Below, one piece after another: positions 2,935 to 53,680 of a stretch of 64,000 nucleotides of DNA. Each line of letters begins with the position of its first letter. Positions within the stretch are counted from its first letter, which is position 1. Origin of the DNA: Candidatus Pacearchaeota archaeon (GTDB taxonomy: Archaea; Nanobdellota; Nanobdellia; Pacearchaeales; GW2011-AR1); contig JAGVWZ010000016.1 in the NCBI GenBank assembly GCA_018304045.1, forward strand, positions 18,063 through 82,062, in the 5' to 3' direction. The translations under genes and the position numbers were made by a program. The notes below the pieces were generated by a model. That model was not told the DNA's origin, made no database searches, and saw only the letters and a list, made by a program, of their open reading frames with translations.

Positions 2935-2995
2935 GGTAGTAATTTAACAGGTTTTAATTCCTGAACATCCTAAAAACAAGTGCCTGTCGCAAACC

Positions 2996-3011
2996 ACACA
3001 CTAAAGTGTGT
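2996..3011. promoter_or_regulatory. NrdR-box-like 16-bp palindrome (acacactaaagtgtgt) in the nrdJ leader
   Basis: ACAC-N8-GTGT palindrome agreeing at most positions with the bacterial NrdR-box consensus acaCwAtATaTwGtgt; second box ~77 bp from the first. Confidence 0.5.
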
Positions 3012-12704: not shown

Positions 12705-12714
12705 CGCCCGCGCC
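12705..12714. repeat. att-like copy of the tRNA-Asp 3' end (cgcccgcgcc), distal boundary of cassette array
   Basis: 10-bp all-GC match to the tRNA-Asp acceptor or T-stem 3' strand in ~30% GC DNA; one of four copies spaced 0.1-1.2 kb apart. Confidence 0.6.
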
Positions 12715-12745
12715 AAACTCTCGATAAAAGTGTCTCAGTTGAGCC

Positions 12746-13792: not shown

Positions 13793-13861
13793 AGGAAATC
13801 TAAGAAAGCCTAGTTTATAAATCTTACCCTTTATTTATAAAATTATATTATAAAGGGTAAA

Positions 13862-13871
13862 CGCCCGCGCC
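13862..13871. repeat. att-like copy of the tRNA-Asp 3' end (cgcccgcgcc)
   Basis: Same core as 12705, 15795 and the tRNA itself; followed by the conserved cassette-end motif caaaaggacttttagtaaat. Confidence 0.6.
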
Positions 13872-13960
13872 GAACAAAAGGACTTTTAGTAAATATTAAT
13901 AAAATTGGAAAGAACTTTTGTGAATAGAACTCTGGATAAAAGTGTCTCAGTTAGAAGAAA

Positions 13961-14520: not shown

Positions 14521-14654
14521 GTTAAATTTTTAAATTTAATCAGACAGAAAATTCTTAATTTTCTGTATATGTAAGATTAGTCTTACTAGTATATAAATAT
14601 TTCTATGAACAAATCTTACTCTCTACAAATGATATTTGTATTGTAAGGGGTAAC

Positions 14655-14664
14655 CGCCCATGCC
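14655..14664. repeat. degenerate att-like copy (cgcccatgcc) of the tRNA-Asp 3' end
   Basis: gggtaaCCGCCCATGCCAga versus gggtaaACGCCCGCGCCGaa at 13856; it separates the toxin-antitoxin cassette from the Fic-2 cassette. Confidence 0.45.
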
Positions 14665-14812
14665 AGACACCCATCATCTGGGTATATCTTAGTGTTTTTA
14701 TAAGAATTACTTAATCTATTGAATTTATAAGAGCTGTCGAGATAAAATATATCTATTTGACTTACCCCTACATAATAGGAAGATTTAAATATGTGTAGGG
14801 GTATAAATAATT

Positions 14813-15794: not shown

Positions 15795-15804
15795 CGCCCG
15801 CGCC
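15795..15804. repeat. att-like copy of the tRNA-Asp 3' end (cgcccgcgcc)
   Basis: Exact 10-bp copy 108 bp from the tRNA 3' end. Confidence 0.6.
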
Positions 15805-15911
15805 TGTTTAAATTCCCATTTCTTTATTATTAATCTTACCAAAATGATAATTTAAAACTCAAACATCGGGTTCCCCGAGTTCATAGTCTCGGTTAAAATT
15901 ATAAGAGAAAG

Positions 15912-15983
15912 CGCCCGCGCCGAGACTCGAACTCGGGTTGCATCCGTGACAGGGATGAGTGCTAACCACTACACTACGCGGGC
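15912..15983 (-). tRNA. tRNA-Asp (anticodon GTC)
   Basis: Manual fold: acceptor GCCCGCG/CGCGGGC; anticodon stem CATCC/GGATG with loop CTGTCAC; T-arm CCGAG-TTCGAGT-CTCGG; discriminator G; no encoded CCA. Confidence 0.8.
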
Positions 15984-16750: not shown

Positions 16751-16890
16751 GGCTCTGTCCGGAATAAATTAATCTAGTCTTATATTGAATAATAAATCTC
16801 TTCATTTTTCTTTCACGCCCTCAATTATTAGGGGCGCGTAAATAAAAATAAGTTTAATTCTAATAAGTATAAAGAACTCCGGACAAAGCC
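16751..16890. mobile_element. MITE-like element, copy 1 (~140 bp, 12-bp perfect TIR GCTCTGTCCGGA, internal hairpin)
   Basis: Terminal inverted repeats ggctctgtccgga ... tccggacaaagcc; flanked by a direct repeat ccaaaatta (possible target-site duplication); second copy at 25043..25192. Confidence 0.55.
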
Positions 16891-18700: not shown

Positions 18701-18925
18701 ATGTCAGAAATTAAACCACATCTTTTAAGATGTGGATGTTTACTTGTTTTAATTTCTGAGCCATCAAAATATTTTAAATATTTTGTGGCGCCTAAAACTT
18801 CTGAAAGTTTTAGTGCGCATCCTAAAAACAAGTGCCTGTCACAAACCACACATGTCAGAAATCTTTTATGGATTTCTGAGCACTATTGAGAATTAAAAAT
18901 TCTCAAAGCTTTAGTGTGTTAAGTA
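18701..18925. ncRNA. copy B of the nrdJ-leader element family (orphan copy between convergent genes)
   Basis: atgtcagaaattaaaccacatcttttaagatgtgg...gttttaatttctga ... cctaaaaacaagtgcctgtcacaaaccacaca aligns with 2901..3016; outer stem shows compensatory changes (ggaattaaaac/gttttaattcc versus agaaattaaac/gttttaatttct); extra 9-bp perfect hairpin ctaaaacttctgaaagttttag. Confidence 0.4.
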
Positions 18926-25042: not shown

Positions 25043-25192
25043 TGCTCTGTCCGGAATTAAATCTCCTAACTTCGAATATTCTAAAAAATCACTTATTTTT
25101 CTTTATCCCCCTCATTAATTAGGGGGGAGTAAATAAAAATAAGACAATAATAGATTAACTTTTATTAAAAATAAAGGACTCCGGACAGAGCA
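25043..25192. mobile_element. MITE-like element, copy 2
   Basis: TIR tgctctgtccgga ... tccggacagagca (perfect 13 bp); internal hairpin tccccctcattaattaggggggag corresponds to cgccctcaattattaggggcg in copy 1 (compensatory G:C to C:G swaps); conserved core ttttctttNNcNccctcaattattaggggNgNgtaaataaaaataag. Confidence 0.55.
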
Positions 25193-34213: not shown

Positions 34214-34687
34214 ATGCTAAAAAAAGGTTTAGGGCTTATAGGTCTTGTAGTTACAATTTTAATATTCTTTAGTGGAGGATTGTTTAGTTTTTACTTTTTT
34301 GATATTAAGACAAGTATTCCATTACTTAATGCACTTATTATAACAATAAAACCGTTTATACTCCCAATTGCTATTTTTTGTGTTATACCTTTAATTGTGT
34401 TTATAATCTGCGTATTGAGAGCAAAACCCAATACTAATATAGATGAGATATTCTTTTGGAAAATATTGAATTTAATTACTCATCTTATATTATTAATTTT
34501 AATATTATTTATTATTGGTTGGTTTTGGGCATTGATGATGATAGGATTAATGATAATTTCAAATAATATTAATATTTCATTAATAATCCCCTGCATCATA
34601 GTAATTGTTTCTATATTTGTAATAGATGCATTAGTACAAAAACATTTTAAGATTAGATATTATAATATACTTCATTGGCTTAAATAG
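34214..34687 (+). CDS. integral membrane protein
   Basis: Four to five TM helices. Confidence 0.35.
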   Translation: MLKKGLGLIGLVVTILIFFSGGLFSFYFFDIKTSIPLLNALIITIKPFILPIAIFCVIPLIVFIICVLRAKPNTNIDEIFFWKILNLITHLILLILILFIIGWFWALMMIGLMIISNNINISLIIPCIIVIVSIFVIDALVQKHFKIRYYNILHWLK

Positions 34688-35549
34688 AAGCCATTTTAAT
34701 TAATCCCAACCATCTATTTTCTCCTAAATCTAAATCTTGACCTGCAAGAGAACAAGGAACTTGTTTAGTTGTGGTATGTTCTTCTATAAAATTATGTTGT
34801 ATGGTTAGACCTGCCATGATTATTGGAGCAGACCAAAGGGCTTTCAATCCTCTAAAATCATCAACTCTATCTTTAATCTTCATAAAAACAGTTTCTATTT
34901 TATAATTATGAATATGAGTTTTATGATAATTTTGTATTTTATGCTCTACTTCATAACCACCACCAAAACCTAATTTATTATTGTAAAACATTTTTTTAAA
35001 TGCCTTAGGATAGAAAACTCCTGCATCTGTTTGAATAAACTTGGGTTTTCCTTTGCTTATTGCTTTCTCTAAGAATATTTTTGCTTGATTAGGATTTGTA
35101 GCTGTGCTATAATGTATTCCAGTAATCATTCTAGTATTCCAGTCAACACAACACCAATATTTATCTAAATGCCCACTTCTATTGATTACTGTTTCATCAG
35201 CATAAAATGAATTACCTAGATTATAACCTAATTTTTCAACAAAGTTATAAACCTTTAGAGCATACTTGTAAACCCAGTTTAAAATAGTTTGATGGCTTAC
35301 TTTAAAATTGAAATGTCTTTTTAATTGGTTTCTCATTTTTCTGCTTGAAAGGTTTGATAAGTACATATCAATGGACATAGCAATAGTTCTATTATCAGTT
35401 CTCATCCTATAAAAGCCATTGTCAGCAGTAAAGTATTTCTTACAATCAGAACAATAGTATTTCTGAATCTTACCTCTATTTTCAGTTTTTCTGTATCCTT
35501 GCTTTGAAAAGTTGATACTTCCACAATGCTTACATTTTATTTCTTGTTT
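34680..35549 (-). CDS. IS6-like DDE transposase with N-terminal zinc finger
   Basis: N-terminal CKHCGS...CSDCKKYF zinc finger; DDE candidates ADETVIN / IQTDAGVFYPKAFK / NFIEEHTTTK resemble the IS6/IS26 DETY...TDKAPAY...IEQ spacing; probable start at MKQEIKCKHCG. Confidence 0.5.
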   Translation of the reverse strand, partial: KQEIKCKHCGSINFSKQGYRKTENRGKIQKYYCSDCKKYFTADNGFYRMRTDNRTIAMSIDMYLSNLSSRKMRNQLKRHFNFKVSHQTILNWVYKYALKVYNFVEKLGYNLGNSFYADETVINRSGHLDKYWCCVDWNTRMITGIHYSTATNPNQAKIFLEKAISKGKPKFIQTDAGVFYPKAFKKMFYNNKLGFGGGYEVEHKIQNYHKTHIHNYKIETVFMKIKDRVDDFRGLKALWSAPIIMAGLTIQHNFIEEHTTTKQVPCSLAGQDLDLGENRWLGLIKMASI

Positions 35550-35680
35550 CATAATATATTCATGTACCTGAACTATATAAATGTTTCGGTACATGAAAAA
35601 GATATTTAAATACAAAAAAGCTTATAAACTGATAAAAAGAAGAGAAGAAAAGGTAATTGTGATATAACCAAGATTTAAAA

Positions 35681-36382: not shown

Positions 36383-36599
36383 ATTAATAATTTATTCTTT
36401 TTCAATTAAAATTTTTCCATCATTCAATGATGCTTTAAGTTCTTTTCCTAATAACTTAGATTCTTTTACGACATCCTTAGGTAAAATTAAAATATATCTA
36501 TTATAAGTAACATCACCTATTTTCTTGTCTAATACTTCACGAATTTTCATAGAATAAACAGGTACATGAAGTATTTAAAACTTTAGGTACATGAAAGAA

Positions 36600-37394
36600 T
36601 TATTTTAATATCTCTTTTAAATCAAGATTAATAGATTCAAAATATTTAACTGGGCTATTTTTTTTCAAATTCTTTGTTGTTTTACCTTCTTTAAATAAAT
36701 CAATAAAATTTGATAAACCTTTTTTATATTTTTCTTTTATTTTAGGAAGAAGTTTTTCCTTAGCCTGATTTAAACAATTCTTGCTACAAAAATTTCTAGT
36801 TATTTTATTCTCTTTAAAATTAATGAATCTATTGTTATGTTCTTTTCCACAAACAATACAAATATCTTTCTCATCAGTTATTCTTTGTCTAAAAGAATAA
36901 CCATATTTATTAATATAACAATCCGCGCATTTAGATGAACAAAAGTCAGCCATATTACTAAACCCTGCATTTGAATGAATTATAAAGCCATCATGTCCTT
37001 TTCCGCACACTATACATTTATACCTAAACTTCATCCCAAATAATCTTTTAAAAAAAAGTTTTGGTTTATGAAACCAAATCCTACCTTGTATAATTTCTCC
37101 TTTTTCAGTATTAGGTTTATTCGGTTTAGAAATAAGTTTTTCTTCTTTAGGTTTAACAACAAAACATTTAATTTTTTGTTTTTCCATTTGCGGCTTAATT
37201 TCTGAAAGATATTCTTGTAATCCTTTAATTTTACTATAATCCGTTTCATCAGTCTTCATTCTTAAAAATAAAGTTCTTTCTATTTTATTATTAATCGTCT
37301 GATTTCCAAATCCTTCTATTTCAAAATAAGCATTTGGAGAGGGTTCGGTAATATTTATTACTTTGTCATGAGTCTTTCTATTTTCCTTTTTCAT
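36600..37394 (-). CDS. protein with two TRASH/zinc-ribbon-like metal-binding modules
   Basis: CIVCGKGHDGFIIH...FCSSKCADCY and CIVCGKEHNNRF...FCSKNC (Cx2C-x19-22-Cx3C TRASH spacing). Confidence 0.45.
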   Translation of the reverse strand: MKKENRKTHDKVINITEPSPNAYFEIEGFGNQTINNKIERTLFLRMKTDETDYSKIKGLQEYLSEIKPQMEKQKIKCFVVKPKEEKLISKPNKPNTEKGEIIQGRIWFHKPKLFFKRLFGMKFRYKCIVCGKGHDGFIIHSNAGFSNMADFCSSKCADCYINKYGYSFRQRITDEKDICIVCGKEHNNRFINFKENKITRNFCSKNCLNQAKEKLLPKIKEKYKKGLSNFIDLFKEGKTTKNLKKNSPVKYFESINLDLKEILK

Positions 37395-38444: not shown

Positions 38445-38603
38445 TTAATCTTCGTCACAATCTTCAAATTTTACAGAATGAAGATTTTCGTATTCTTCTT
38501 TTCTTTTTTTACTGCATTTATCACAATATTTTCTTGTGTATCTTCCAGAAACTTTAGCTAAAAAATCCTTTCCGCAATCCTTACATTTTATTTGTTTTTC
38601 CAT
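38445..38603 (-). CDS. 52-aa zinc-ribbon mini-protein (MEKQIKCKDCGKDF...YCDKCSKKRKEE...)
   Basis: CxxC...CxxC; paralog of 20908..21018; directly upstream of tRNA-Gly. Confidence 0.35.
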   Translation of the reverse strand: MEKQIKCKDCGKDFLAKVSGRYTRKYCDKCSKKRKEEYENLHSVKFEDCDED

Positions 38604-38756
38604 GACTAAATCAGGATTTTTAAGAATTTAAACTTTGCTGCCCAGTTTTAATATGGATTAATAAATCTTGCCATACTACTCTATGGTTAAAATGACCTAA
38701 CCTAAACATAAAATCTTTTAAACCCCTTTTTATTGTTATGTTATATTCAAAATATT

Positions 38757-38882
38757 GCGCCGCTAGTTTAGTGGTAGAACATATCGTTGCCAATAAAGAA
38801 ATTAGATTAATTTCTAATTTTTCCTTTCATAAGGAAAGAAAGCAAAAACGATAGGATCCGAGTCCGATTCTCGGGTGGCGCA
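38757..38882 (+). tRNA. tRNA-Gly (anticodon GCC) with ~55-nt intron after position 37
   Basis: Exon 1 GCGCCGC-TA-GTTT-AGTGGTA-GAAC-A-TATCG-TTGCCA; intron aataaagaaatt...gcaaaaa (approximately 38793..38847); exon 2 (A)CGATA-GGAT-CCGAG-TCCGATT-CTCGG-GTGGCGC-A; acceptor 7 bp with one G:U. Confidence 0.7.
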
Positions 38883-39007
38883 TTCATATTTGCAAGGCAA
38901 ATATGTCATCCGGGATGTCGTAAAGAATTCAAACAGTGATAAGGTCTGATTCCGAGCAAAAGGACTTTTAGTAAATTTGATAGAATAAGAAAGCACTTTT
39001 GCGAGTA

Positions 39008-39018
39008 GGGTGGCACAT
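39008..39018. repeat. att-like copy of the tRNA-Gly 3' end (gggtggcacat)
   Basis: tRNA ends cgggtggcgca; the copy is preceded by the conserved cassette-end motif. Confidence 0.55.
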
Positions 39019-39081
39019 TTTATTATTTTCTAGTAGTAACAAAATAGGAAGATTTAAAAATGTTAAAGAATAGTTAATTTT

Positions 39082-39537
39082 ATGGGATATGATTATAAAA
39101 GTTTAGAAGATTTTAAAATGGGTTTTCCATTTCTTCGTAGCTGTAGCAAACTTGGAGATTTTAAACTTTTTATTATAGGTGAAGAAAAAAGTGAAAGATT
39201 AAGGGCTTGTGAATTTACCCAAGGAGTTCTTGAGAGAATGTTGGATGAAGCTAAAAGCTCTGGAGATATTAGAGACTATGAAGTAAAAATCATTGATCTT
39301 GCAACTTCTACTAAAGCTACTCGAATTGATCCATTATATCCAGAAGAATGGGGAAGAATAGGAAATAAAGATGGTTTAGTTTTTCTTCCAATATTTCATA
39401 ATACAGATGGTGAACCATGCTTACCTCAAGTTGCATTTGATGAGCATTTACCGGCGATTTTTTCAGTTTCACAAAAAGGATATAATGCAGTAGTAAATCG
39501 TTCTAAAAGAGATTGTTATGATACTGTAAGAGTTTAG
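39082..39537 (+). CDS. hypothetical protein (cassette gene)
   Basis: ORF only. Confidence 0.3.
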   Translation: MGYDYKSLEDFKMGFPFLRSCSKLGDFKLFIIGEEKSERLRACEFTQGVLERMLDEAKSSGDIRDYEVKIIDLATSTKATRIDPLYPEEWGRIGNKDGLVFLPIFHNTDGEPCLPQVAFDEHLPAIFSVSQKGYNAVVNRSKRDCYDTVRV

Positions 39538-39578
39538 TAAACCAAAAATTTTATAAATAATCATTTACTATAAACTAC

Positions 39579-39773
39579 ATGGAAACACAAACAATAGACA
39601 ATTTGTCAAAAGAAGTAATGCTGTTAAAAAAAGAATTTGCTAAAATGAAAGAATTCATGGAAGAAGATCTTGAATTTGCAAAAAGAACAGAAGAAGCATG
39701 GCAGGAAATTGATGAAGGAAAATGCACTTGTATAAATTCTGAAGACTTTTTAAAAGAAATTAAAAAATGGTAG
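39579..39773 (+). CDS. antitoxin (C-terminally similar to 14251..14520)
   Basis: EEDLEFAKRTEEAWQE...FLKEIKKW versus EEDLEFARRTEEAYKR...FIEEMKKW; immediately precedes and overlaps the toxin gene. Confidence 0.5.
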   Translation: METQTIDNLSKEVMLLKKEFAKMKEFMEEDLEFAKRTEEAWQEIDEGKCTCINSEDFLKEIKKW

Positions 39774-40015
39774 AAATAATCTATGCAGATAGATTCAAAA
39801 GAACATTATCAAAAATTAAGGATAATAATCTTAAAGAGAGGGTAGCAAAACAAATTGCAAAGATTATTGAAAATCCTGAAATAGGCAAACCAATGAGTTA
39901 TAATAGAAAAGGGACAAGAGAACTTTATGTTTCACCATTTAGGCTATCTTATGCTTTTATCTCACATCAAAATACAATTTATTTTTTAGATTTGTATCAT
40001 AAGGATGAACAATAA
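39767..40015 (+). CDS. RelE/ParE-family toxin, paralog of 13961..14209
   Basis: ~70% identical to the tRNA-Asp-array toxin. Confidence 0.6.
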   Translation: MVEIIYADRFKRTLSKIKDNNLKERVAKQIAKIIENPEIGKPMSYNRKGTRELYVSPFRLSYAFISHQNTIYFLDLYHKDEQ

Positions 40016-40060
40016 AAGTTCAATTTCCCATATTGAAAATCGCATTTTGGGTGGGTACCC

Positions 40061-40072
40061 GGGTGGCGCATG
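40061..40072. repeat. att-like copy of the tRNA-Gly 3' end (gggtggcgcatg)
   Basis: Preceded by cccgggtgg as in the tRNA. Confidence 0.55.
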
Positions 40073-40109
40073 CTTTTTTTTATAGAAGAGAAATTAGGGA
40101 ATCGAACTT

Positions 40110-40820
40110 TTAACTTATTTCTATCCTTCTACAGGCTAAACATAAAACATCTTTATAAGCATCTTCTCCTACCAAAACTGCTGTAAAATCATATTCTGCT
40201 ATTTGATTACCAGAAATATTATTTGCAATAACCTGTCCTTTGGCAATATTATCAAAATTATTTATCAAGACATTCTCTTTAGATTTTTTTATTATATTAA
40301 AGACCTCAAATATCTCCATATCCTCATTAATCTTATTTTCAATGATATTTTTTATTAACAAGCTTGCTTCTTCTACATTTTCTTTCCTATTATGTGGACC
40401 TACTTCGATGCTTATGCCACAATCAACAAAATCTATTAATGCTTTTCCACTTGCAAAAAATTCAGGCATTATAACTAATTTTTTTAAACCCAATAGTTTT
40501 GCAAATTCTATTTTTTCATTATTTGGTTTTGTTATTATCCCAAACATAGGGCAGTTATTAGATGAAGAATGAATATCTATTATATAATAAAAATCTTTTA
40601 GTCTTTTAATCAGATTATAGGCCAGTTTTTCCTCATGATTCCCATCTATCTTTCCTGGAAAACATCGGTTTAAATCAGTATCTATAAATCTTTTATTCTC
40701 AATAAATGCTTTTTTATTTGAAAGAAAAAAAGGGAAGAAAGACTGGTTTTTACTAACTTCAAAGCCATATCTTTCATTCCCATGTAAACAACAAACAATT
40801 GCTAAATTTTTCATAGTCAC
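40110..40820 (-). CDS. succinylglutamate desuccinylase/aspartoacylase (AstE/AspA) family zinc hydrolase-like protein
   Basis: Conserved CCLHGNERYG (HGNE) motif and IIDIHSS block. Confidence 0.5.
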   Translation of the reverse strand: MTMKNLAIVCCLHGNERYGFEVSKNQSFFPFFLSNKKAFIENKRFIDTDLNRCFPGKIDGNHEEKLAYNLIKRLKDFYYIIDIHSSSNNCPMFGIITKPNNEKIEFAKLLGLKKLVIMPEFFASGKALIDFVDCGISIEVGPHNRKENVEEASLLIKNIIENKINEDMEIFEVFNIIKKSKENVLINNFDNIAKGQVIANNISGNQIAEYDFTAVLVGEDAYKDVLCLACRRIEIS

Positions 40821-40821
40821 G

Positions 40822-41289
40822 TTATAAGATACCTATTGCAAGAACCGCATCTCCCTTATCTAATGCCATTTTCAAATCTTGTTTAAAGAATCTACTTACT
40901 GAACAATGTTCTGGTTCTCTTCCATAGAAAAGTCCTCCATAATATCCTTTGACTACTCCATTAGAATCAGAATTACAATTAAGATAGACTGCAAACTCTT
41001 CTTGTAGAGTTCTAATTTGCCTAGGCATGCCACTCAATCCTGGAAATGTACTTTGGCAGTAATTCAACAATGCTTTATACATTCTTGGATTTTGAGTCCT
41101 TAAACATATTGCTCTTTCTCCATTGATTGCTTGATTTGTAATCTCTCTAAATATTCCCTTTCCTTGAATAGATGAATCTAGACAAATTCCTTCTACAATT
41201 AGAGAAGGAAATCCTGCAAAAGATCTTCTATTATAACTTGCCATTGCTTTGATTTCTCCATTTCTAAGAAGAAATACTCTTTCTGGCAA
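40822..41289 (-). CDS. GNAT-family N-acetyltransferase-like protein
   Basis: Motif A-like IVEGICLDSSIQGKGIF; adjacent to the AstE/AspA-like gene. Confidence 0.45.
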   Translation of the reverse strand: MPERVFLLRNGEIKAMASYNRRSFAGFPSLIVEGICLDSSIQGKGIFREITNQAINGERAICLRTQNPRMYKALLNYCQSTFPGLSGMPRQIRTLQEEFAVYLNCNSDSNGVVKGYYGGLFYGREPEHCSVSRFFKQDLKMALDKGDAVLAIGIL

Positions 41290-41764
41290 AGTTATATGAT
41301 TATAGATATCTTGAAAATCTAAATCCCTCCCAAATCCATTTCTTACAACACTTACAACTTGTTCTAAATCATCAGGATTTGAATCAAAATGCTTCTTAGG
41401 ATTTGTGATTTCTTCTATGTTGCCAAAGACAGCTAGAAGATTTAATTATTTTATTTACCATTTTACTCCTGACCTCCTTTCAGCCTTTTTCAGAAAGAAT
41501 TTCAAAATAAGAAAGATTAAATTAACAGGGCTATGCCCAGGGATATTGAATTAAAAATTTATTATATAGGGTTTTAACTAGGAAGAATATAATTTTATTG
41601 CCAGAGATAACCTCTAGATTGTATTGTCATATAAATTTGATTATTAATTGCTATTTAAATTTTCCTATTCAATTCCCTCCTTTAAAAAAGCAAAATCCCT
41701 GGCTTCTTGAGTATCTAACCTACCCAACCAAAAATTTTATATAGCTTACTTTCTAAGAATAAAT

Positions 41765-41926
41765 ATGGAAAACGAAGAATTAATTATAAGCAAATTAGAT
41801 GTATTAAAACAAGAAATTGACTTTATTAAAAAACATTTAATAGATGTAACTTTAACTCAAGATGATGTTAAATCTTTATGTGAAGCTGAAGAAGATTTAA
41901 AAAAAGGAAGAACAAAGAGGTTGTAA
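41765..41926 (+). CDS. 53-aa antitoxin-like protein upstream of RelE/ParE toxin
   Basis: MENEELIISKLDVLKQEIDFIKKHL...; stop 1 bp before the toxin start codon; below ORF-track cutoff. Confidence 0.45.
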   Translation: MENEELIISKLDVLKQEIDFIKKHLIDVTLTQDDVKSLCEAEEDLKKGRTKRL

Positions 41927-41927
41927 A

Positions 41928-42188
41928 ATGTATTTTGTAGAGCTATCAGTTAAAGCTCAAGATTTCTTAGAAAAAATTGATAAAGATACTAAAGATAGAA
42001 TAGAAAAAAGATTAAAAAATCTTGAAAGTAATCCTATTCCAAGCGATTCAAAATTTATTGGAAGAGATAATAATGAAATGGTTTTTAGATACAGGATTGG
42101 TAAATTCAGAGCTCTGTATAAAGTTAAAGAAGCTCAAAAGATAATTTTAGTCACTAAAATTGATAAAAGAGACAAAGTTTATGATTAA
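41928..42188 (+). CDS. RelE/ParE-family toxin
   Basis: 86 aa; FRYRIGKFRALYKV...IILVTKIDKRDKVY typical RelE/StbE C-terminal region. Confidence 0.6.
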   Translation: MYFVELSVKAQDFLEKIDKDTKDRIEKRLKNLESNPIPSDSKFIGRDNNEMVFRYRIGKFRALYKVKEAQKIILVTKIDKRDKVYD

Positions 42189-42304
42189 ACTAAATTCCTT
42201 ATAGTAAAACAATAAAATTTTGTGCAAACTGAACTTTTTTCTTGTTTACGAGCAAAAGGACTTTTAGCAAATTCGATGAAATAAGAAAGCACTTTTGCGA
42301 GTAG

Positions 42305-42315
42305 GGTGGCGCATG
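42305..42315. repeat. att-like copy of the tRNA-Gly 3' end (gggtggcgcat)
   Basis: Preceded by the conserved cassette-end motif (42253..42304). Confidence 0.55.
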
Positions 42316-42364
42316 TTTTACTGAACATTATATAGTCCTTAAACTAAAATGTGGTAGCCGAGAA

Positions 42365-42375
42365 GGGTAGCGCAT
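42365..42375. repeat. att-like copy of the tRNA-Gly 3' end (gggtagcgcat), last of the array
   Basis: 50 bp after the previous copy (empty cassette). Confidence 0.45.
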
Positions 42376-42430
42376 TTCTATTATAATTAAGGTTCATAAA
42401 ACATTTAAACTTAATTAAGCTCTTTTTTAC

Positions 42431-43549
42431 ATGGTTTTAAAAGAGCTGATTAAAAACCACTCTGGAAAGATACAAGCATCTCTATCAACGATTATAAAGA
42501 TAATACTTATTTTTTCTATTTTCTATGCCACATACTATCATCTTTGGCATATTTTGTTTGCCAATATTTTTTTATTGTTCTTATTATTTACACCATATTT
42601 TCTAAGAAAAAAATATGAAGTTCATATTCCAAAGGAATTCGAGTTTATTTTTCTTGCATTCATAATAATCTCGTTTTTTCTAGGTGATATAAGGGGAACA
42701 ATTATACAGATTTTTTTTGGAACTGCTATAGCTTTTATTGGATTTACAATAATGCTGATATTGTTTTCAAATAGCAAATTTAAGGCCAATTATCTATTAG
42801 TTATGCTATTTTCATTCAGTTTTTCTGTAACTTTTGGACTTATTGCAGAAATGATAAAATATTATCTAAAAACTTATTTTAATGAAGGAATAGTAAATCT
42901 TAGTGACTATACTTTTGCCATGCAAAATCTTACTTTTGTTGCCATAGGAGCTTTAACTGCATCAGTATTTGGTTTTATTTACATGAAAGGATTTAGAAAC
43001 AAGCTAATGAAAGAATGGGTTGGCAAATTTAAGAAAAGCAATCCAAATTTATTTATTCAAAGAACTGAATCACCTGAAGAAATATTAAAATTAATTAAAA
43101 AAGGTGAGAATGAAAAATTAGAATTCAAATCAACATTAAGGATGAATCTTCATACAGGAGAAAAAGATAGAAAAGTTGAAAATTCAGTTCTTAAAACAAT
43201 TGTTGCATTTTTAAATTCTGAAGGAGGTTGTTTATTAATTGGAATTTCTGATAATAGTGAAATAATTGGTATAGAAAAAGATGGATTTGTTAATAATGAT
43301 ATGTTTAATAGGCATTTTACAAATCTAATAAAAGAAAAAGTTGGAAATGAGTTTTTACCATTTATGAATTTTGAAATAGTATCATTAGATGGAAAAAATA
43401 TCCTTAAGGTAGATTTAGGAAAAAGTGATAAGCCAGTCTTTCTAAAAAATAGCAATGAGGAATTTTACATAAGAGTTGGAGCATCATCAATTCTGTTGAA
43501 TGGAAGTGAATTAATTGAGTATATCAAGAATAAATTTCATATAAGATAA
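42431..43549 (+). CDS. membrane-anchored Schlafen/AlbA_2-domain protein
   Basis: N-terminal ~200 aa with five or six TM helices; C-terminal EKLEFKSTLRMN...VLKTIVAFLNSEGGCLLIGISDNSEIIGIEKD matches the AlbA_2 (divergent AAA / Schlafen) signature. Confidence 0.6.
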   Translation: MVLKELIKNHSGKIQASLSTIIKIILIFSIFYATYYHLWHILFANIFLLFLLFTPYFLRKKYEVHIPKEFEFIFLAFIIISFFLGDIRGTIIQIFFGTAIAFIGFTIMLILFSNSKFKANYLLVMLFSFSFSVTFGLIAEMIKYYLKTYFNEGIVNLSDYTFAMQNLTFVAIGALTASVFGFIYMKGFRNKLMKEWVGKFKKSNPNLFIQRTESPEEILKLIKKGENEKLEFKSTLRMNLHTGEKDRKVENSVLKTIVAFLNSEGGCLLIGISDNSEIIGIEKDGFVNNDMFNRHFTNLIKEKVGNEFLPFMNFEIVSLDGKNILKVDLGKSDKPVFLKNSNEEFYIRVGASSILLNGSELIEYIKNKFHIR

Positions 43550-47070: not shown

Positions 47071-47231
47071 CTTTTATAAAAAGAAGTTATAAGGATTATT
47101 GTTCTAGATGAATCTCAAAAATATGGGCCCACGCGGCCCTAGAATCGCGGAGAGCTCGGTGTAAAAAATAAGAACCTTTTTGTATCCAAAAGAATAATAA
47201 TATTTATAAACTGTACAGTTTATTATATTGT

Positions 47232-48497
47232 ATGTACAAAGATAGATACATTAGAAGAAAAGGGGAATTTTTGGATAATAAGGATATTAATCCTAAAAAT
47301 AGGAAGGTTACTGAAAAGTTCTTTGAATTTGAAGAATACAAACTAAAGAGGAAGCAAGGATTAGCAGAGGTTGATGAAAAATCCTACAAAACACTTTATT
47401 TCTATGTTGGTAGATTGATTAATTTGAATAATTGGTTTAAGAATAAAGATTGGTCTAAATTAACTGAAGAAGAAATAAAAAAATTAATTGATGATTTAGA
47501 AGACGGAAAAATAACAACTCATAAAGGGACAAGATTTACAGACAGGAGTTTGTATTATCAAATGATAAAAGGAAAATTATTTGATTTAGTTGGTAAGAGT
47601 TTTATTGCAACACAAATCCTAAAAGAGTTCTCAATAAAAGGAAGAGAGTTTAGAGATGAAGTAAGATATATTGAAGAAGAGTCTTTTAGAAAAATTGTTG
47701 ATTGTGCTCCAAAGTCAGAACATAAGTGTTTGATGTGGTTAGCTTTTGATATAGGTGAGAATATTGGAACTCTCTTAGAATTGACTAGAGAAGATTTCCA
47801 AAGACAAATCAATCCAGACACTAATGAACCAGAATATTTAGTTATGCTAACTAAAGATAGGATTAAGAGGAGTAGAACTGCAAGAGGTGAAACTACCAAT
47901 CATCAGGAAACTGTAAAATATTTAGATATAATTCTTAGAAACCTAAAACCAGCATCACCAAAAACTTCCACTAGCCGGTATCGCAGGTCACTTAAAACTT
48001 TAAATGAACTACATCCAGAAAACAAACTATTCAAGTTTGGCCACAAAGCATCTGTAAAGTTTTTTGACAGAGCAGTTGTAAGAGCAGGAGTAAAATGTTT
48101 ACCTGGTGGTCAAAAAGTTACATGGAAAGATTTGAGAAGTTCTATGGCTTGTAATTTATTGAGAAAAGAGTGGTCCAGAGACGAGGTAAATGCTAGACTT
48201 GGACATAAGCCTTCTAGTCGTATCATAGATTCTTACATCAACTATCTTTCATTAGATAGAAGAAAACCACAAAAGAAAGTTTATGAAAGCAGTTTAAAAA
48301 AGATTGAAGCTGATTTTGAAAAACAAAAAGAAGTTTCAAAATTACAGGGATTAAAAATTGAAAATCTAAGAGAGGATATAAAACAAATCAAAACAGACTT
48401 TAAATTAGCAATGGAAAAACAAAGAAAACAATTAATTGAAATTGTTATGGAATTAAAGAAGGGACAAGTAAAACCTATTGTTGTTAAGAGTCATTAA
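47232..48497 (+). CDS. tyrosine recombinase/integrase
   Basis: C-terminal catalytic region with R...LGHKPSSRIIDSYINY (H-x-x-R, Y); preceded by GC-rich palindrome gggcccacgcggccc at 47124..47138. Confidence 0.65.
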   Translation: MYKDRYIRRKGEFLDNKDINPKNRKVTEKFFEFEEYKLKRKQGLAEVDEKSYKTLYFYVGRLINLNNWFKNKDWSKLTEEEIKKLIDDLEDGKITTHKGTRFTDRSLYYQMIKGKLFDLVGKSFIATQILKEFSIKGREFRDEVRYIEEESFRKIVDCAPKSEHKCLMWLAFDIGENIGTLLELTREDFQRQINPDTNEPEYLVMLTKDRIKRSRTARGETTNHQETVKYLDIILRNLKPASPKTSTSRYRRSLKTLNELHPENKLFKFGHKASVKFFDRAVVRAGVKCLPGGQKVTWKDLRSSMACNLLRKEWSRDEVNARLGHKPSSRIIDSYINYLSLDRRKPQKKVYESSLKKIEADFEKQKEVSKLQGLKIENLREDIKQIKTDFKLAMEKQRKQLIEIVMELKKGQVKPIVVKSH

Positions 48498-49066
48498 AGT
48501 CTTCTGGGCATTTCAAATAATTTTATCATCTTCTCATCTAACTTCTTTTTAAAATCGTCAGGTCTACCTTTTTGTTTAATAATATAATAGATAACATAAA
48601 ACTTTATTGCAGAGATAAAAATATTTTCTCCAGCATTAAGTTCACATATAACTTCTCTTGCTTCAGGATTATCATATATTTCATTTAAGAATTTCTTTTC
48701 TCTTTGATTTAATTTAATATGCAATTCATCAAATGAATCAAATATAAATTTTATTTTAATTTTATGAACAGGGCTTCTTTGAGTATATTTTGTTCCATTG
48801 AAGTTTGTTTTATTTATTGCATCTGTTCCTTCTTCAATATAATCTGCTTCTTTGAGTTTATCAAATACTTTTGTCACAGCTCCAATACTTTTTACATCTT
48901 TTTTAGTATTTGGATATAATTTTCTCGTAACTTCTCCATGTGTAACAAACTTTCTAAAATATTCTAAAGCGACTTTGTTTTCTCCTATCCCTTTTATCAA
49001 TGGGGGTCTTACAGCAGGATAAACTATTATTGGTTCATCATCTAAAGTTTTTTTTCCTTTCTTCAT
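48494..49066 (-). CDS. hypothetical protein (mobile-element gene)
   Basis: ORF only. Confidence 0.3.
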   Translation of the reverse strand: MKKGKKTLDDEPIIVYPAVRPPLIKGIGENKVALEYFRKFVTHGEVTRKLYPNTKKDVKSIGAVTKVFDKLKEADYIEEGTDAINKTNFNGTKYTQRSPVHKIKIKFIFDSFDELHIKLNQREKKFLNEIYDNPEAREVICELNAGENIFISAIKFYVIYYIIKQKGRPDDFKKKLDEKMIKLFEMPRRL

Positions 49067-49115
49067 TTTAGGGTACCATTAACAGGTATATTAAGTATTT
49101 ATACTTTATTATAAA

Positions 49116-49259
49116 ATGGAACTACAAAAACCAATAAAATGTGAATGCAAGAAGTGCGGCTGGTGCTGGTATTCTACACTTGGCAGAAAACCAAAAGTCT
49201 GCGTCAGGTGCAAGAGGTATGACTGGCAGGAGGAGAAAGATGAGCGAAAACAGCAATGA
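49116..49259 (+). CDS. 47-aa zinc-ribbon protein (MELQKPIKCECKKCGWCWYSTLGRKPKVCVRCKRYDW...)
   Basis: CxCxxC...CxxC; alternative frame to the listed ORF 49141..49395, whose N-terminus (MNARSAAGAG...) looks non-genuine. Confidence 0.35.
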   Translation: MELQKPIKCECKKCGWCWYSTLGRKPKVCVRCKRYDWQEEKDERKQQ

Positions 49260-49521
49260 TTCTATTCTCCTCCAAAAAGAGTCCTTAGACAGAGTCTTTG
49301 ATATAATTGATGAAATGCAGGGCGATATTATTGGTTTAGAGTCAAAATGGTTAAAAGAGGTGCAAGAGGATGACAGAGAACAACAGAGTGATTGATATGA
49401 ACCTATCTGAACCTAATAGCCAATACTTCTCACCACTAGATGATATAATATATGGTGGTCTTATTTTTCTTATATTCTTCCGGAAGAAAAGATTGATTGA
49501 AAGGAGGTTCCGAACTACAAA

Positions 49522-52500
49522 ATGATACCACCTATTCAACTTAGAAAACCCCAATTTAAGTTTATACTGTTGGGTAGGTGGAATCAATATAAAGATAGTA
49601 ATAAAACAATCCATATTTTTGAACCAAAAACGAAGGAAGAATTTGATTCTATAAAAGAGCAGGGTTTTGCCTCCATTGGAAAAGCTCCTATTGAATCTGG
49701 CTGGACTAAGAATTCAGACTATATTTATGCAGACCCAAAACTACTTAGCCATATCTCTGCAGGATATAATTATGGTGTAAAATGTGGACCTGGAAGATTA
49801 AGTATCCTTGATGTTGATGACACATCCATTATCCCAGAGTTAGATAAGATGGTTCCAGAAACCCTAACCATTGAAACAGGAAGTGGAAAACAGCATAGGT
49901 ATTTCCTAGTTCCTGTAGGAACTCCTAAAATAATTTTAGAAAAGAATAAAGTCCATTATGGAGAACTGCAAGGTCCTGGTTCTCAATGTGTTGGGGCAGG
50001 TTCAAAACATCCAATTGGCGGAAAAGAGTATAATGTTATAAAAGATGTGGATATTACAGAACTTTCACAGGAGATTATAGATAAAATTAAAGATAACTAC
50101 ACAGACTTTAATAATGACCCTATAAAAGTCATTTCTCCAGATTGGAATCAGTATAATAAGACAAATATAAGTGACTTATTATCAATAACCACTTTAGTTA
50201 ATTTAGGTAGTATGAAGAAAACTGGTGGAGAGTATTTTGGTTCCCATCCAGTTCATGGCTCACAGACAGGTATGAATTTTTTTATTAATCCATCTAAAAA
50301 TCTCTGGCATTGTTTCAGGTGTGATTCTGGAGGAGATTCTTTATCCCTCTTAGCAGTCAATGAAGGTATTTGCGGATGTAGCGACTTTTCAAGAAGTGGA
50401 AAGAAACTAAGGGGAGAAGATTTTATCAAAGTGAAAAAAATTGTTGAAGAGAAATATAACATCAAGATTCCTCAAAAAGAACTAGAATTAACTCCTTTAA
50501 AGAATATCAAAGTAGAGTTAGGTAGGCGTGTTAAAACAATCGTTTCTGTTTTAGATATGACTCCGGGAGTTAGTATGGTTGTAGGGTATGAAGCAACTTG
50601 TCCACAATGCCTTAGAAATACAATTTTATACCACAAAAATCCTACCTCTTGCTCAATAGCTTTTGCAGAAGAATTAAAAAATGAAAATAAAGCCGGTTGT
50701 CTTGATAGTGCTAATAAACCTATAAAAGTAGATATCAAACCAATACATGAAACAGGTTATTTATTGAGTGTATTTGACCCAAAAGATACTGGAAATAATA
50801 TGCAAATAACTCCAATTTTTATAAAGAATGATTTAATACCTAAAGATTACAAATCTAAAAAAGATTGGGAAGGAGATTTATTAATAAAACCCCTTATTTT
50901 AGAAGGTAAAATCGGAGTTTTTCAATCTTTTAAAAAAAAGTTTGAGGATTGGTTTATTCATGTGGAGAATTATGAGTTTGAGGTGAAAAAAGAAGATGTT
51001 AACTACACACTTTTAAGAAAGTTTGGAGATATCGAGAGGGGTAAGAATTTTTTTGCAGAAAATTTCGCTCCAAGAATCTATGATAGAACACTAGCTAAAA
51101 AGATGTACACATTAACATTACTTTCACCAATAAAAATAAATTTACCTAATGATGAAATTGATTATGGAATAATAAATACGATAGATATGGGTGATGCTGG
51201 ACAAAGCAAAACAAAGCTTAGTAAAGAAACCTTAAAATGTGCAAAGGGGACCAACTCTAAATTTATCAGTGTTGAGAATTCTACAAATAGGGGATTACTA
51301 GGTTCAGTAGTAAAAAGTCAGAATTCTGAATCATGGACAGTTAAGGTTGGAGAGATACCTAAAGCAAGTAATGGATTAGTTTGTTTAGATGGTTATTCAA
51401 AGTTGTCACCTGACGACATGACTCAATTTAGAGGGATTTTAGAGGAGAAAGAGTTTCAGATTACAAAAGCAGGTGGAGTGCAAAAAGAATGTCCTGTTAG
51501 AATTATAATGTTAGGAAATATCGTAAAACCAATAGGGCAATACTCCACCAAACATCAAGCAAGTTTTAATATGGGTGCAACAGAGTCTGATGAAACAAAT
51601 AAATTTTCGGGTCCAGACAGAAGAAGAATTCATCATGTGTCTATTGTTGCTGATTCTGATACCAATGCTAGGGATATTGATATGCATTTATCAAAAAAAT
51701 ATGATAAAGAAAAAATAAGAGAATTGGAAAATTATTGGTCTAATTTAAGAGCTTTCTCTTGGACAAGAAAAGCTGGAGATTTTATCTGGGAAAGTGGTAT
51801 TATAGAATATGTTCAAACAAAAATAGACAGTCTTAGAAAGAAATATCCCAGGTTCTCAATGCAATATGGTGTCTTATCTAAAGGAGGGTCAAAGATGTTT
51901 ACAATCCAGTTACCCACAGTAGCAATGTTACATGAATCAATTGATGACAGTCACAAAGTCGTTATCAGGAAGGACCATGTTGATTGGTTATACCATATGT
52001 ACTTAGAGGAATTTAATGAGTTAGGATTGGGGGCTGAAAATGAAGTATATAGTATTCATAAATTGCATGCTATAGCTATTAGTCGTAATTGTTCAAAGGA
52101 AGTAAAGGAGATATTATTACTTTTACAGAGATATGGGGGAAATCAAACTGCAATTGAAAATGCAGGAGTTGTAAGTCGTATGCACATTAGTCGAATGTTG
52201 AGCAATCCAATAGAGTATGAACTAAAACACATCAGTGGTATAAAACCTCATTGGTATAAACTTAATGAAGGTTCTGGCGAACCAAAAGAAACAAGAGAGG
52301 GTATTAAATTTTTCCCTGATGACGATTTACCATCTATAACAAAAAGGGGCACAGGTTCTTTTACAGATTTTGGTAAAATCTTAATTCAAGAAATATTAAG
52401 GTTAAAAAATGAGGAACTTCAAAAGGATAAGATAATAGGAATCCCCGATTTAGAAGATGTTACATCTGTTACAGGCAGGAATGAAAGTTTAGATAACTAT

Positions 52501-52761
52501 GCAGTTGGCGGCGTTACATCTGTTACAGGTGTTACACCAAAAGAGGATATATCAAATAAAAATATAGAAAAAGTAGGAGAAGTAATACAAAGTAATACTA
52601 GTTCTATTGAAATTAAGAAAAAGAATATACTTGATATTAAAAATAGTGTAACAGATGTAACGAGTGTAACAAAAGATATATTGAATCTCAATAATACTAT
52701 AGGGGATAGTGTAATAGATGTAACAGAAGAACCTGAGTATGAAACGGAGGATTTAACATGA
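49522..52761 (+). CDS. replication protein: primase-polymerase-like N-terminal region + SF3 (D5-type) helicase, C-terminal VTSVTG repeats
   Basis: N-terminal SILDVDDTS / HCFRCDSGGDS (prim-pol and zinc-binding-like); Walker A-like MGDAGQSKT; Walker B VCLDGYSKL; 1079 aa. Confidence 0.6.
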   Translation: MIPPIQLRKPQFKFILLGRWNQYKDSNKTIHIFEPKTKEEFDSIKEQGFASIGKAPIESGWTKNSDYIYADPKLLSHISAGYNYGVKCGPGRLSILDVDDTSIIPELDKMVPETLTIETGSGKQHRYFLVPVGTPKIILEKNKVHYGELQGPGSQCVGAGSKHPIGGKEYNVIKDVDITELSQEIIDKIKDNYTDFNNDPIKVISPDWNQYNKTNISDLLSITTLVNLGSMKKTGGEYFGSHPVHGSQTGMNFFINPSKNLWHCFRCDSGGDSLSLLAVNEGICGCSDFSRSGKKLRGEDFIKVKKIVEEKYNIKIPQKELELTPLKNIKVELGRRVKTIVSVLDMTPGVSMVVGYEATCPQCLRNTILYHKNPTSCSIAFAEELKNENKAGCLDSANKPIKVDIKPIHETGYLLSVFDPKDTGNNMQITPIFIKNDLIPKDYKSKKDWEGDLLIKPLILEGKIGVFQSFKKKFEDWFIHVENYEFEVKKEDVNYTLLRKFGDIERGKNFFAENFAPRIYDRTLAKKMYTLTLLSPIKINLPNDEIDYGIINTIDMGDAGQSKTKLSKETLKCAKGTNSKFISVENSTNRGLLGSVVKSQNSESWTVKVGEIPKASNGLVCLDGYSKLSPDDMTQFRGILEEKEFQITKAGGVQKECPVRIIMLGNIVKPIGQYSTKHQASFNMGATESDETNKFSGPDRRRIHHVSIVADSDTNARDIDMHLSKKYDKEKIRELENYWSNLRAFSWTRKAGDFIWESGIIEYVQTKIDSLRKKYPRFSMQYGVLSKGGSKMFTIQLPTVAMLHESIDDSHKVVIRKDHVDWLYHMYLEEFNELGLGAENEVYSIHKLHAIAISRNCSKEVKEILLLLQRYGGNQTAIENAGVVSRMHISRMLSNPIEYELKHISGIKPHWYKLNEGSGEPKETREGIKFFPDDDLPSITKRGTGSFTDFGKILIQEILRLKNEELQKDKIIGIPDLEDVTSVTGRNESLDNYAVGGVTSVTGVTPKEDISNKNIEKVGEVIQSNTSSIEIKKKNILDIKNSVTDVTSVTKDILNLNNTIGDSVIDVTEEPEYETEDLT
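52459..52728. repeat. iteron-like repeats GTTACATCTGTTACAGG (x2 direct) and GTAACAGATGTAAC (x2 inverted) inside the 3' end of the rep gene
   Basis: Copies at 52459..52475, 52513..52529 (+) and 52647..52660, 52714..52727 (reverse complement); also encodes the VTSVTG peptide repeats. Confidence 0.55.
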
Positions 52762-53012: not shown

Positions 53013-53063
53013 TTTTTCCGTCGACAAAGGGATAGTATTTAAACTTTAACTCATTAGAGATAT

Positions 53064-53528: not shown

Positions 53529-53680
53529 GGGTTGCTTATATCAATTAGTTCGGAGTTCAATTCTATTCAGACCCATTTTTATGAATACAGGATAAACAAT
53601 ATCTTAATCTTGTTGTATGGTCTGATACTCTGCTTGTTTATATACTTCTCCTTATGATTAAATAAATATTAAAGAATAAG

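Follow-up and report, generated by a model that had tools for sequence, protein, structure and literature searches.

What is the conserved, partly palindromic sequence of about 55 nucleotides (nt) that accompanies copies of tRNA 3′ ends in the genome of a Candidatus Pacearchaeota archaeon? In a stretch of 64,000 nt from contig JAGVWZ010000016.1 (hereafter the window) two arrays of small gene cassettes are headed by a tRNA-Asp and a tRNA-Gly gene, and the sequence is found in both. The original prediction, made from the sequence alone, likened it to the attC sites of integrons. Here, we describe it as a hairpin module that interrupts a partial copy of the local tRNA 3′ end, that recurs with different tRNAs in other archaeal genomes and whose stem is maintained by compensatory changes. 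Our favoured, though tentative, explanation is that the module is a folded accessory part of the attachment site of cassettes that lack an integrase and are targeted to tRNA ends.

The module and its place in split tRNA-end copies

The 20-mer CAAAAGGACTTTTAGTAAAT is found in the window at 13875, 38957 and 42253 (the last with one mismatch), always on the + strand; three matches were reached by none of 100 dinucleotide shuffles. With a covariance model the three copies score 73-77 bits (E ~1e-16): 75.7 bits for the copy in the Asp array (~55 nt, 13869..13926, + strand), 76.5 bits for the first copy in the Gly array (38951..39007, +) and 72.9 bits for the second (42247..42303, +). The next-best match in the window has 21.5 bits and lies within an open reading frame (ORF), and the scan gave no convincing copy beyond the three. 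The two Gly copies are 89% identical across 75 nt and have the right half, AAGAAAGCACTTTTGCGAGTAG, exactly in common; the Asp copy has both boxes in common with them, but its loop differs. Its layout is CGAA-CAAAAGG..CTTTTG-TGAA, with an outer stem of 13874-13880 with 13915-13921 and an inner stem of 13883-13886 with 13909-13912.

As predicted, the motif stands directly before a tRNA-end core in the Gly array (motif at 38957 and 42253, cores at 39008 and 42304), and the Asp copy and its tRNA face in opposite directions, since tRNA-Asp is encoded on the - strand and the motif on the + strand. The description of the motif as an element beside the core was, however, only half of the picture. It does adjoin the core, but its far side bears a T-loop-like box (38943-38953, GGTCTGATTCC), and the motif therefore interrupts a partial copy of the tRNA 3′ end.

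To find further copies, the gapped pattern CAAAAGGACTTTTAG-N18-30-ACTTTTG was run over species-representative genomes, JGI metagenomes and viral contigs. Copies were found on three contigs of the Nanoarchaeota metagenome-assembled genome DeMMO1_8, in the Pacearchaeota metagenome-assembled genome RIFOXYC1_FULL_30_12 and on about a dozen metagenome contigs; the viral contigs had none. Unique canonical copies number 17, of which three are those of the window and 14 lie outside it, and all are in Nanoarchaeota- or Pacearchaeota-type DNA. A covariance model built from the 17 added four diverged copies, likewise in such DNA (L018 195-267, L008 2185-2241, L012 208-263 and L060 5632-5685; L numbers denote fetched loci). 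The pattern also matched bacterial and other records, but there the flanks are unrelated, and these matches were discarded as chance (L002, L003, L006, L007, L009-L011, L015, L016, L020, L021, L023, L025, L028, L029, L031, L033). The motif thus recurs with different tRNAs and in other genomes, as had been anticipated.

The DNA covered is the 64-kb window plus about 220 kb of fetched loci. A matching intact tRNA, or another tRNA-end core, is present on the same contig for 14 of the 17 canonical copies, and in these 14 the 3′ end of that very tRNA is present a second time, degenerate and split by the module, in the order T-loop-like box, YGAG, hairpin, YGAG, final 10-12 nt of the local tRNA. The claim that the motif neighbours a tRNA-end copy therefore holds for these 14; no tRNA was found on the contigs of the remaining three (L005, L008/L027 and L013/L030), where a T-loop-like box is clear in L005 and L008 and ambiguous in L013/L030. 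The diverged copies of L018 and L060 also lie between a T-loop-like box and a tRNA 3′-end core. Past the tRNA-Gln of L001, CCCAGGTTCGAATCC-TGGTGGGGCTA of the gene has become CCCAGGGTGAATCC-(CGAG..module..CGGGT)-TGGTGGGGTTA in the copy; past the tRNA-Leu of L004, ATAGGTTCAAATCC-TATCCCCCGCA corresponds to GTAGGTCTCAAATCC-(CGAG..module..CGAGT)-TATCCCCTGCA. In both, the insert separates positions 62 and 63 of the T arm. The same layout was seen at a second tRNA-Gln, a tRNA-Glu, an Ile/Met-type tRNA and several unnamed tRNAs.

A full unit starts with a tRNA end or a core copy, followed by a hairpin of 8-12 bp (H1) that varies in sequence but keeps its structure. It continues with an inverted repeat (GGAATTYGAACC plus a T-loop-like box such as GGTCTCAAATCC), the module and the core, often with a T-run behind it. 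Most commonly this is a gene-free unit of 115-175 bp directly 3′ of an intact tRNA or of another core (L001, L004, L017/L026, L018, L022, L024, L014, L019, L032 and the first Gly copy of the window; among the diverged copies, L018 and L060). A minority of copies closes gene cassettes (the second Gly copy and the Asp copy of the window, L008 and L005). Contrary to what had been assumed, the motif is therefore not mainly a cassette-end element. Among the orientable copies, 20 of 21 have the core 3′ of the module; the inverted one is the Asp copy of the window. In L008 two modules stand in tandem upstream of a single core at a cassette end (2185-2241, diverged, and 2119-2178, canonical). In L019 (1-260 and 2650-2870), two identical motif units of 160 bp in tandem are followed by 2.4 kb of cargo and, past it, by a full-length but decayed tRNA-Gln pseudogene with a motif unit of its own. 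Hence, whole blocks of tRNA plus unit can be displaced, and not 3′ ends alone.

Echoes of this kind are not restricted to loci found through the motif. About one third of the tRNAs sampled without motif selection have an echo of their 3′ end 100-150 nt downstream (tRNA-Glu of L018, tRNA-Gln of L057 and tRNA-Asp of the window), and so has the tRNA-Gly of L060, a locus reached through the ParE gene of a cassette. No convincing upstream echo was found at the tRNAs of the fetched loci. An echo past the tRNA-Gly of L055 lies inside a gene and is probably due to chance.

Two parts of the unit behave differently. The arm, that is the T-loop-like box with the module, is more alike across units at Gly, Leu, Gln and a CGCGTCCA-ended tRNA than it is to the neighbouring tRNA. 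The cores, in contrast, are unrelated among units and always match the local tRNA: one arm is combined with cores that have been swapped between tRNAs. A conserved, element-specific arm next to a locally matched, target-specific core is the design of an attachment site. Moreover, whichever explanation is preferred, the split tRNA-end copy is a footprint of recombination, and since the module lies exactly inside it, we favour the module as part of the architecture of the site.

The fixed place in the T arm (positions 62/63 in L001 and L004) may also recall a tRNA intron. The units would then be relics of a non-canonical T-arm intron, in original 3′ ends that were displaced when incoming DNA supplied an intron-less 3′ end. 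tRNA introns do occur in these archaea (in the tRNA-Gly of the window and of L060), and the presence of a similar sequence in many tRNAs is reminiscent of the Thermoproteales, in which introns have transposed among tRNAs. However, the 19 intact tRNAs called in the fetched loci are all free of the module, and all copies are without the 5′ half of a tRNA. A scanner gave no consistent bulge-helix-bulge motif, but it likewise failed to find the relaxed motif of the tRNA-Gly intron used as control; drawing by hand gave none either, only a 4-bp helix in some copies. Left of the module, the arm is similar to that of other units and not to the local tRNA, and so the left part does not come from the host tRNA. 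In addition, the Asp copy is inverted, and the core next to the module decays while the module does not. Taken together, we regard an intron relic as very improbable.

Folding of the module as DNA or RNA

The consensus of the module is YGAG, a stem of 11-13 bp, an AU-rich loop starting with TTAGTAA, the returning stem and YGAG. In an alignment of 23 copies that was fitted to the structure, 98.3% of the pairing cells are paired, and in 8 of 11 pairs there are compensatory changes on both sides, a level reached by none of 500 shuffles; this variation comes from only four diverged copies. When the partner columns are slid, pairing falls to 35-61%. In the diverged copies the letters of the stem flip, from CAAAAGGAC.. 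to TGATTTTAT.., CATTTTCAA.. or CAATTTTAT.., and despite these flips the YGAG flanks and the TTAGTAA start of the loop are constant. The common form has a 2x2 internal loop (GA/YA); the copies of L008, L012 and L060 have a continuous stem of 13 bp instead. A conserved, hairpin-forming element tied to tRNA-end copies at the boundaries of cassettes and arrays is thus supported, both by covariation and by the 14 of 17 copies mentioned above. The bulged hairpin expected for attC is a different matter: the module is a hairpin, but conserved bulged bases are absent.

Two other explanations for the conservation were considered and dismissed. A coding function was suggested by the open frame 3 of the Gly copies with two synonymous changes, but the modules range from 43 to 48 nt and differ by non-multiples of three, which argues against coding. 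The boxes could also be two independent palindromic operators (AAAAG-NN-CTTTT, twice). The stem flips of the diverged copies break each of these palindromes, whereas the pairing between the boxes survives, and this speaks against two separate operator sites.

With RNA parameters the sense strand folds with z values of -2.2 to -3.4 and the antisense strand more weakly (Asp copy, -2.2 on + and -1.9 on -; Gly copy 1, -2.4; Gly copy 2, -3.4). DNA parameters give only a weak fold (z -0.4 to -1.1), and a stability like that of attC as DNA can be discarded. Pairs of the G-U type outnumber A-C pairs on the motif strand by 8 to 2, which hints, if weakly, at folding of the motif strand and not of its complement.

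These data would suit the main rival explanation, an RNA element. The unit would then be part of a transcript, either behind the tRNA (3′ trailer) or behind the last cassette gene (3′ untranslated region), the hairpin would be an RNA structure that serves processing, stability, termination or protein binding, and the tRNA-end copy would be a separate footprint of recombination. In line with this are the compensatory changes including G-U pairs (8 against 2 A-C), the stronger fold of the sense strand and the orientation of the copies, of which 20 of 21 orientable ones run in the same sense as the tRNA or the ORF upstream. Behind the core there is often a T-run (L001, L022, L018, L005 and the window), whereas the intact tRNA is followed by a hairpin without a T-run, and the unit has been kept at an orthologous locus (L060). 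On the other hand, wobble pairs of the G-T type are tolerated in folded DNA too, and T-runs are common in DNA with a G+C content of about 29%. The Asp copy is antisense to the ParE transcript. No Rfam family matches the module: at the gathering threshold of Rfam 15 only three tRNAs were found, and a permissive scan of 38600-42500 gave only a chance match to a CRISPR repeat (39036-39060, E = 0.69). Nor does the pseudo 3′ end find a partner for an acceptor stem within the unit (p > 0.05 in 12 of 14 units), and since the complementary 5′ strand is missing, the unit is not a tRNA-like fold that would be recognised by RNase P or RNase Z. An RNA function also leaves the exact place of the hairpin between T-loop-like box and tRNA-end core unexplained. 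We therefore consider a role solely as RNA doubtful, but it deserves to be taken seriously; moreover, it is compatible with a role in the attachment site, and the two are not mutually exclusive.

How the module would work in an attachment site can be outlined. The site would belong to a family of small, mostly integrase-less DNA units that accumulate at tRNA 3′ ends in DPANN archaea of the Pacearchaeota/Nanoarchaeota type, some gene-free, others with cassettes such as ParE/MazE or Fic. It would consist of the inverted repeat with the T-loop-like box, the module, a core of 10-12 nt equal to the local tRNA end and the second short hairpin, H1. A recombinase supplied in trans would exchange strands within the tRNA-derived core, and the module would bind the recombinase or an accessory protein, or fold out as single-stranded DNA or as a cruciform. 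It is tempting to speculate that folding out the hairpin places the T-loop-like box beside the core and so recreates the arrangement of T-loop and acceptor in the target tRNA gene.

The two arrays and the mobility of the units

The Gly array is headed by a tRNA-Gly(GCC) gene with an intron of 55 nt at the canonical position (38757..38882, +). This gene is seen only with the intron option of ARAGORN and is missed by default ARAGORN and by Rfam at the gathering threshold; the intron of its orthologue in L060 has 59 nt. The core GGGTGGCGCA is present, with at most one mismatch, at 38873 (in the gene itself), 39008, 40061, 42304 and 42365. Directly behind the gene is a gene-free echo unit of 135 bp (38883..39017, +) with H1 (38885-38905), the T-loop-like box already described, the first module copy and the core GGGTGGCACA (39008-39017); L060 has the orthologous unit. 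The next cassette contains ORF151, an antitoxin and ParE and is closed by a core without the motif (40061..40070, +), which is preceded by a T-loop-like GTTCAATTTCC and a different insert of 31 nt. Then follow an AstE/AspA-like gene, ORF155, an antitoxin and a ParE-family toxin gene (41928-42188), closed by the second module copy and the core right after it (42304..42313, +). A remnant of 61 bp ends with the last, degenerate core (GGGTAGCGCA, 42365..42374, +), which has CCGAGAA before it and no hairpin; host genes follow. ORF151 encodes an orphan protein with a single match, 99% identical, in a homologue search aimed at cassette mobility.

Upstream of ORF151 and of unrelated cassette genes, at a distance of about 25 nt, lies a promoter-like block, AGTAGTWACAWAWTAGGAAGATTTAAA (window 39032-39058, L024 902-915 and L060 6320-6345), and a shorter form, TAGGAAGATTTAAA, is found upstream of the second Fic gene (14776-14789). 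The block may be a portable cassette promoter. Because the window and L024 have it beside the core, the whole was considered as an intact attP; however, L060 has AGTAGTWACAWAWTAGGAAGATTTAAA without a core, and its short form stands before the second Fic gene; it is therefore regarded as a cassette promoter block that lies outside the site.

The Asp array is headed by tRNA-Asp(GTC) (15911..15983, -), and the core CGCCCGCGCC is found at 12705, 13862, 15795 and 15912, the last being the tRNA-Asp gene itself. In the sense of the tRNA, the gene is followed by a gene-free unit of 116 bp without the motif (closing core 15795..15804, +) and by the second Fic cassette, which a degenerate core read directly from the sequence (CCGCCCATGCC, 14653..14663, +) separates from the MazE/ParE cassette. 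The latter ends with the inverted module and a core of 12 nt identical to the tRNA 3′ end (13862..13873, +), which abuts it; just past this core, again in the tRNA sense, a hairpin TACCCTTTAT..ATAAAGGGTA, also read directly from the sequence (13825..13859, +), is the counterpart of H1. The array closes with the first Fic cassette, whose core (12705..12714, +) has the same flank as that at 13862 but no motif. The ends of the MazE/ParE and first Fic cassettes are homologous (aactgagacacttttatcSagagtt plus core). What sets them apart is an indel of 54 nt, namely the motif, whose junction shows GTT microhomology; the core at 12705 thus represents the empty site. The same cassette end with and without the module indicates that the module is gained or lost as a unit. 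Common to the two cassette ends is also the box gataaaagtgtctcagtt (12723..12740 and 13935..13952, both +), the first copy of which overlaps the stop codon of the first Fic gene; this is the exact repeat noticed before, although the positions given for it, 12727 and 13943, were slightly off.

The module could also be a mobile insertion similar to a miniature inverted-repeat transposable element or a repetitive extragenic palindromic (REP) element, with CAAAAG/CTTTTG as terminal inverted repeats and T-loop-like sequences as targets. The Asp indel fits such an insertion in its microhomology and in the opposite orientation of the insert, the stem is similar to terminal inverted repeats, and copies within one genome are more alike than copies between genomes. 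REP elements have a GTAG tetranucleotide next to the foot of their hairpin, which the conserved tetranucleotide of the module recalls. Yet no copy was found outside a split tRNA-end copy in the window and the fetched loci. A variable target-site duplication is absent, the YGAG flanks being constant, and the module has just 55 nt. Finally, the window has no transposase of the Y1/HUH type, and its sole transposase is of the IS240-type DDE family. It is highly unlikely that the module is such an insertion.

The gene for this DDE transposase is at 34680-35615. A repeat of 66 nt (77% identical) is located at its 5′ end (35547-35612) and 1 kb further on (36545-36610), flanking two small ORFs. Two further repeats were seen in the window: one of 35 nt, CATCCTAAAAACAAGTGCCTGTCRCAAACCACACA, with 97% identity in distant intergenic regions (2966-3000 and 18818-18852), and one of 49 nt (86% identical; 16804-16852 and 25095-25143), a GC-rich palindrome of the type CGCCCCT..AGGGGCG followed by an A/T-rich tail, which may be a common terminator or regulatory hairpin.

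Do such units move? The arrays are bounded by tRNA-end cores and contain typical mobile cargo, ParE/MazE pairs and Fic genes. The window contig recurs in several groundwater metagenomes, and one contig of this population (L044) has an insertion at the 5′ end of this tRNA-Asp, an integrase-less element of 2.7 kb (L044 7500-10212; window ~15983). It encodes a radical-SAM-like protein of 466 amino acids and an AsnC-type regulator of 320 amino acids, has a direct repeat of 13 bp (GCCCGCGTAGTGT) and gives the tRNA-Asp a new upstream region. The window and most other contigs of the population do not have it, and this strain polymorphism shows that such elements move in this population.

The only recombinase found by a Pfam scan of about 50 ORFs in the window, a tyrosine recombinase (47232-48497), lies about 5 kb past the Gly array; NCBIfam gave no match to integron integrases. 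It belongs to a large DPANN family (483 matches) whose genes stand at the edge of elements with PrimPol/D5-helicase, beside 5′ halves of tRNA-Val that end in the anticodon loop. Because this is a different kind of site, we discarded this integrase as the actor at the module. No homologue of it was found in the motif-bearing loci, the contigs of which are short, and no relative on the viral contigs.

The recombinase gene itself lies in an integrated plasmid- or virus-like element (about 47125-54700; its exact ends were not found) that encodes the 421-amino-acid recombinase, an ORF of 190 amino acids on the opposite strand and a protein with PrimPol, zinc ribbon and MCM (49522-52761). Just upstream of the recombinase gene, at 47125-47165, is a tRNA half lookalike ending with GTGTAAA. 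On the other strand these letters read TTTACAC, the tRNA-Val anticodon loop found ahead of the homologous integrases of L053 and L057; the attachment site may thus have undergone an inversion. A degenerate echo of a tRNA-Val T arm (ATTCACTAGTTTGATTTTGACA compared with ATTCACCAGTTCGATTCTGGTA) at 57938-57960, about 320 nt downstream of a tRNA-Val and past two tiny membrane-protein ORFs, may be an old, decayed cassette.

Several observations weigh against an attachment site. Most copies are in gene-free units, so that nothing visible is inserted. Unrelated hairpin-forming inserts occupy the same place in other partial copies (the second units of L026 and L018, L057 and the window at 40061), and this particular sequence is therefore not required. 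No recombinase is encoded in or beside either array, nor in the short units, and the family of the one in the window points to a different kind of site, as just described. No presence/absence polymorphism of motif-bearing units was seen in 19 + 23 contigs of the population, and no circular form of such a unit. In L060, from a related Pacearchaeote (ParE 90% identical), the orthologous tRNA-Gly is trailed by the same unit, whose stem has diverged through compensatory changes, and then by antitoxin and ParE; the unit is thus old and looks resident and not recently mobile. The excess of G-U pairs and the co-orientation with the tRNA suit an RNA at least equally well, and the conservation of the two boxes is in part an artefact, inflated by the search with an exact pattern. 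Nevertheless, of the two roles proposed originally, recombination site or recombinase-binding site, a role in recombination is still the best explanation of the motif, with the difference that the crossover probably takes place in the tRNA-derived core of 10-12 nt.

A bolder version would see here a tRNA-anchored gene-capture system of DPANN archaea, similar to integrons in function. The platform behind the tRNA, in the order tRNA, H1, inverted repeat of T-loop-like boxes, module and pseudo 3′ end, would be an attI-like landing pad that spares the tRNA, and a recombinase acting in trans would read the folded strand, in which the hairpin places the T-loop-like box beside the core, and would insert and shuffle integrase-less cassettes with toxin-antitoxin pairs, Fic genes and others, with one arm design and swapped cores of 10-12 nt serving many tRNAs and lineages. 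We consider this unlikely in its full extent.

If the module is part of an attachment site, several consequences would follow. DPANN archaea have tiny genomes, and their gene exchange is poorly understood. A sizeable share of their tRNA genes would be trailed by a structured echo unit that marks the accumulation of integrase-less cassettes with toxin-antitoxin or Fic genes; this would be a compact route to the turnover of accessory genes, and the conserved arm with its exchangeable core would show how one family of elements retargets many tRNA genes. If the module acts as RNA instead, it would be a new conserved structure of tRNA trailers. In practice, the units are a source of tRNA-fragment calls and a handy marker of variable regions in Pacearchaeota and Nanoarchaeota bins.

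Comparison with known systems

The module has much in common with integron attC sites: both are short, imperfect palindromes with conserved ends and a variable centre whose structure is kept by compensatory change, both border small, mostly promoter-poor cassettes, including toxin-antitoxin pairs, in arrays, and a fixed platform beside which cassettes pile up, comparable to attI, is conceivable here too. Nevertheless, the identification with attC has to be abandoned. The RYYYAAC/GTTRRRY (R′′/R′) cores with L′′/L′ boxes are absent, and all 17 copies end with YGAG-CAAAAGG ... CTTTTG-YGAG instead. The module has no conserved extrahelical bases of the integron type. One attC per boundary is the rule in integrons, whereas here the cores at 12705, 14653, 15795, 40061 and 42365, which are the majority of boundaries in both arrays, have no motif. 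An adjacent intI with attI was not found among the about 50 ORFs scanned with Pfam, and NCBIfam gave no integron integrase either. With these four defining features lacking, the module does not belong to the integron family. Further differences are that the sequence is conserved here and not the structure alone, that the crossover is likely outside the hairpin and that the array is anchored on a tRNA gene with a tRNA-end copy at each boundary.

The latter properties are those of elements that integrate into tRNA genes with lambda-type intasomes or with archaeal integrases of the SNJ2 or pNOB8 type. The inserted DNA lies between direct repeats of the tRNA 3′ end, one of which belongs to the intact gene, and a conserved arm of the element, as in attP, lies beside a core matched to the target. 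In contrast to these, the arrays and short units described here encode no integrase, the elements can be as short as ~115-175 bp and have just 10-12 nt in common with the tRNA, a hairpin parts the T-loop-like box from the core, and one family of arms is found at many tRNAs. Partial tRNAs in tandem at a tRNA gene are also known from the tycheposon islands of Prochlorococcus, where successive insertions have led to such arrays (10.1101/2020.12.28.424599). Tycheposons, however, encode their own integrases, and there are none here.

Integrase-less DNA that forms arrays at one site and offers a folded single strand as substrate is found among the integrative mobile elements exploiting Xer, such as the CTX phage, in which the attachment site is formed by folding of the single-stranded genome. 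Their target is dif; here it is a tRNA end, and no dif-like 11-6-11 site was recognised. REP elements and palindromes derived from IS200/IS605 are similar to the module in their short hairpin, the conserved tetranucleotide at its foot and the occurrence in either orientation, but the module is not dispersed and is confined to split tRNA-end copies, and no RAYT/TnpA gene was seen.

A full-text literature search yielded no description of the module, which does not disprove that one exists. By analogy, its function most resembles the logic of attC and attI, the attP arms of tRNA-targeting elements and the elements that borrow a recombinase of their host. We therefore rate the loci as tRNA-anchored integrative arrays that have an unusual split attachment site with a hairpin and no integrase, that is, as a variant on known arrays.

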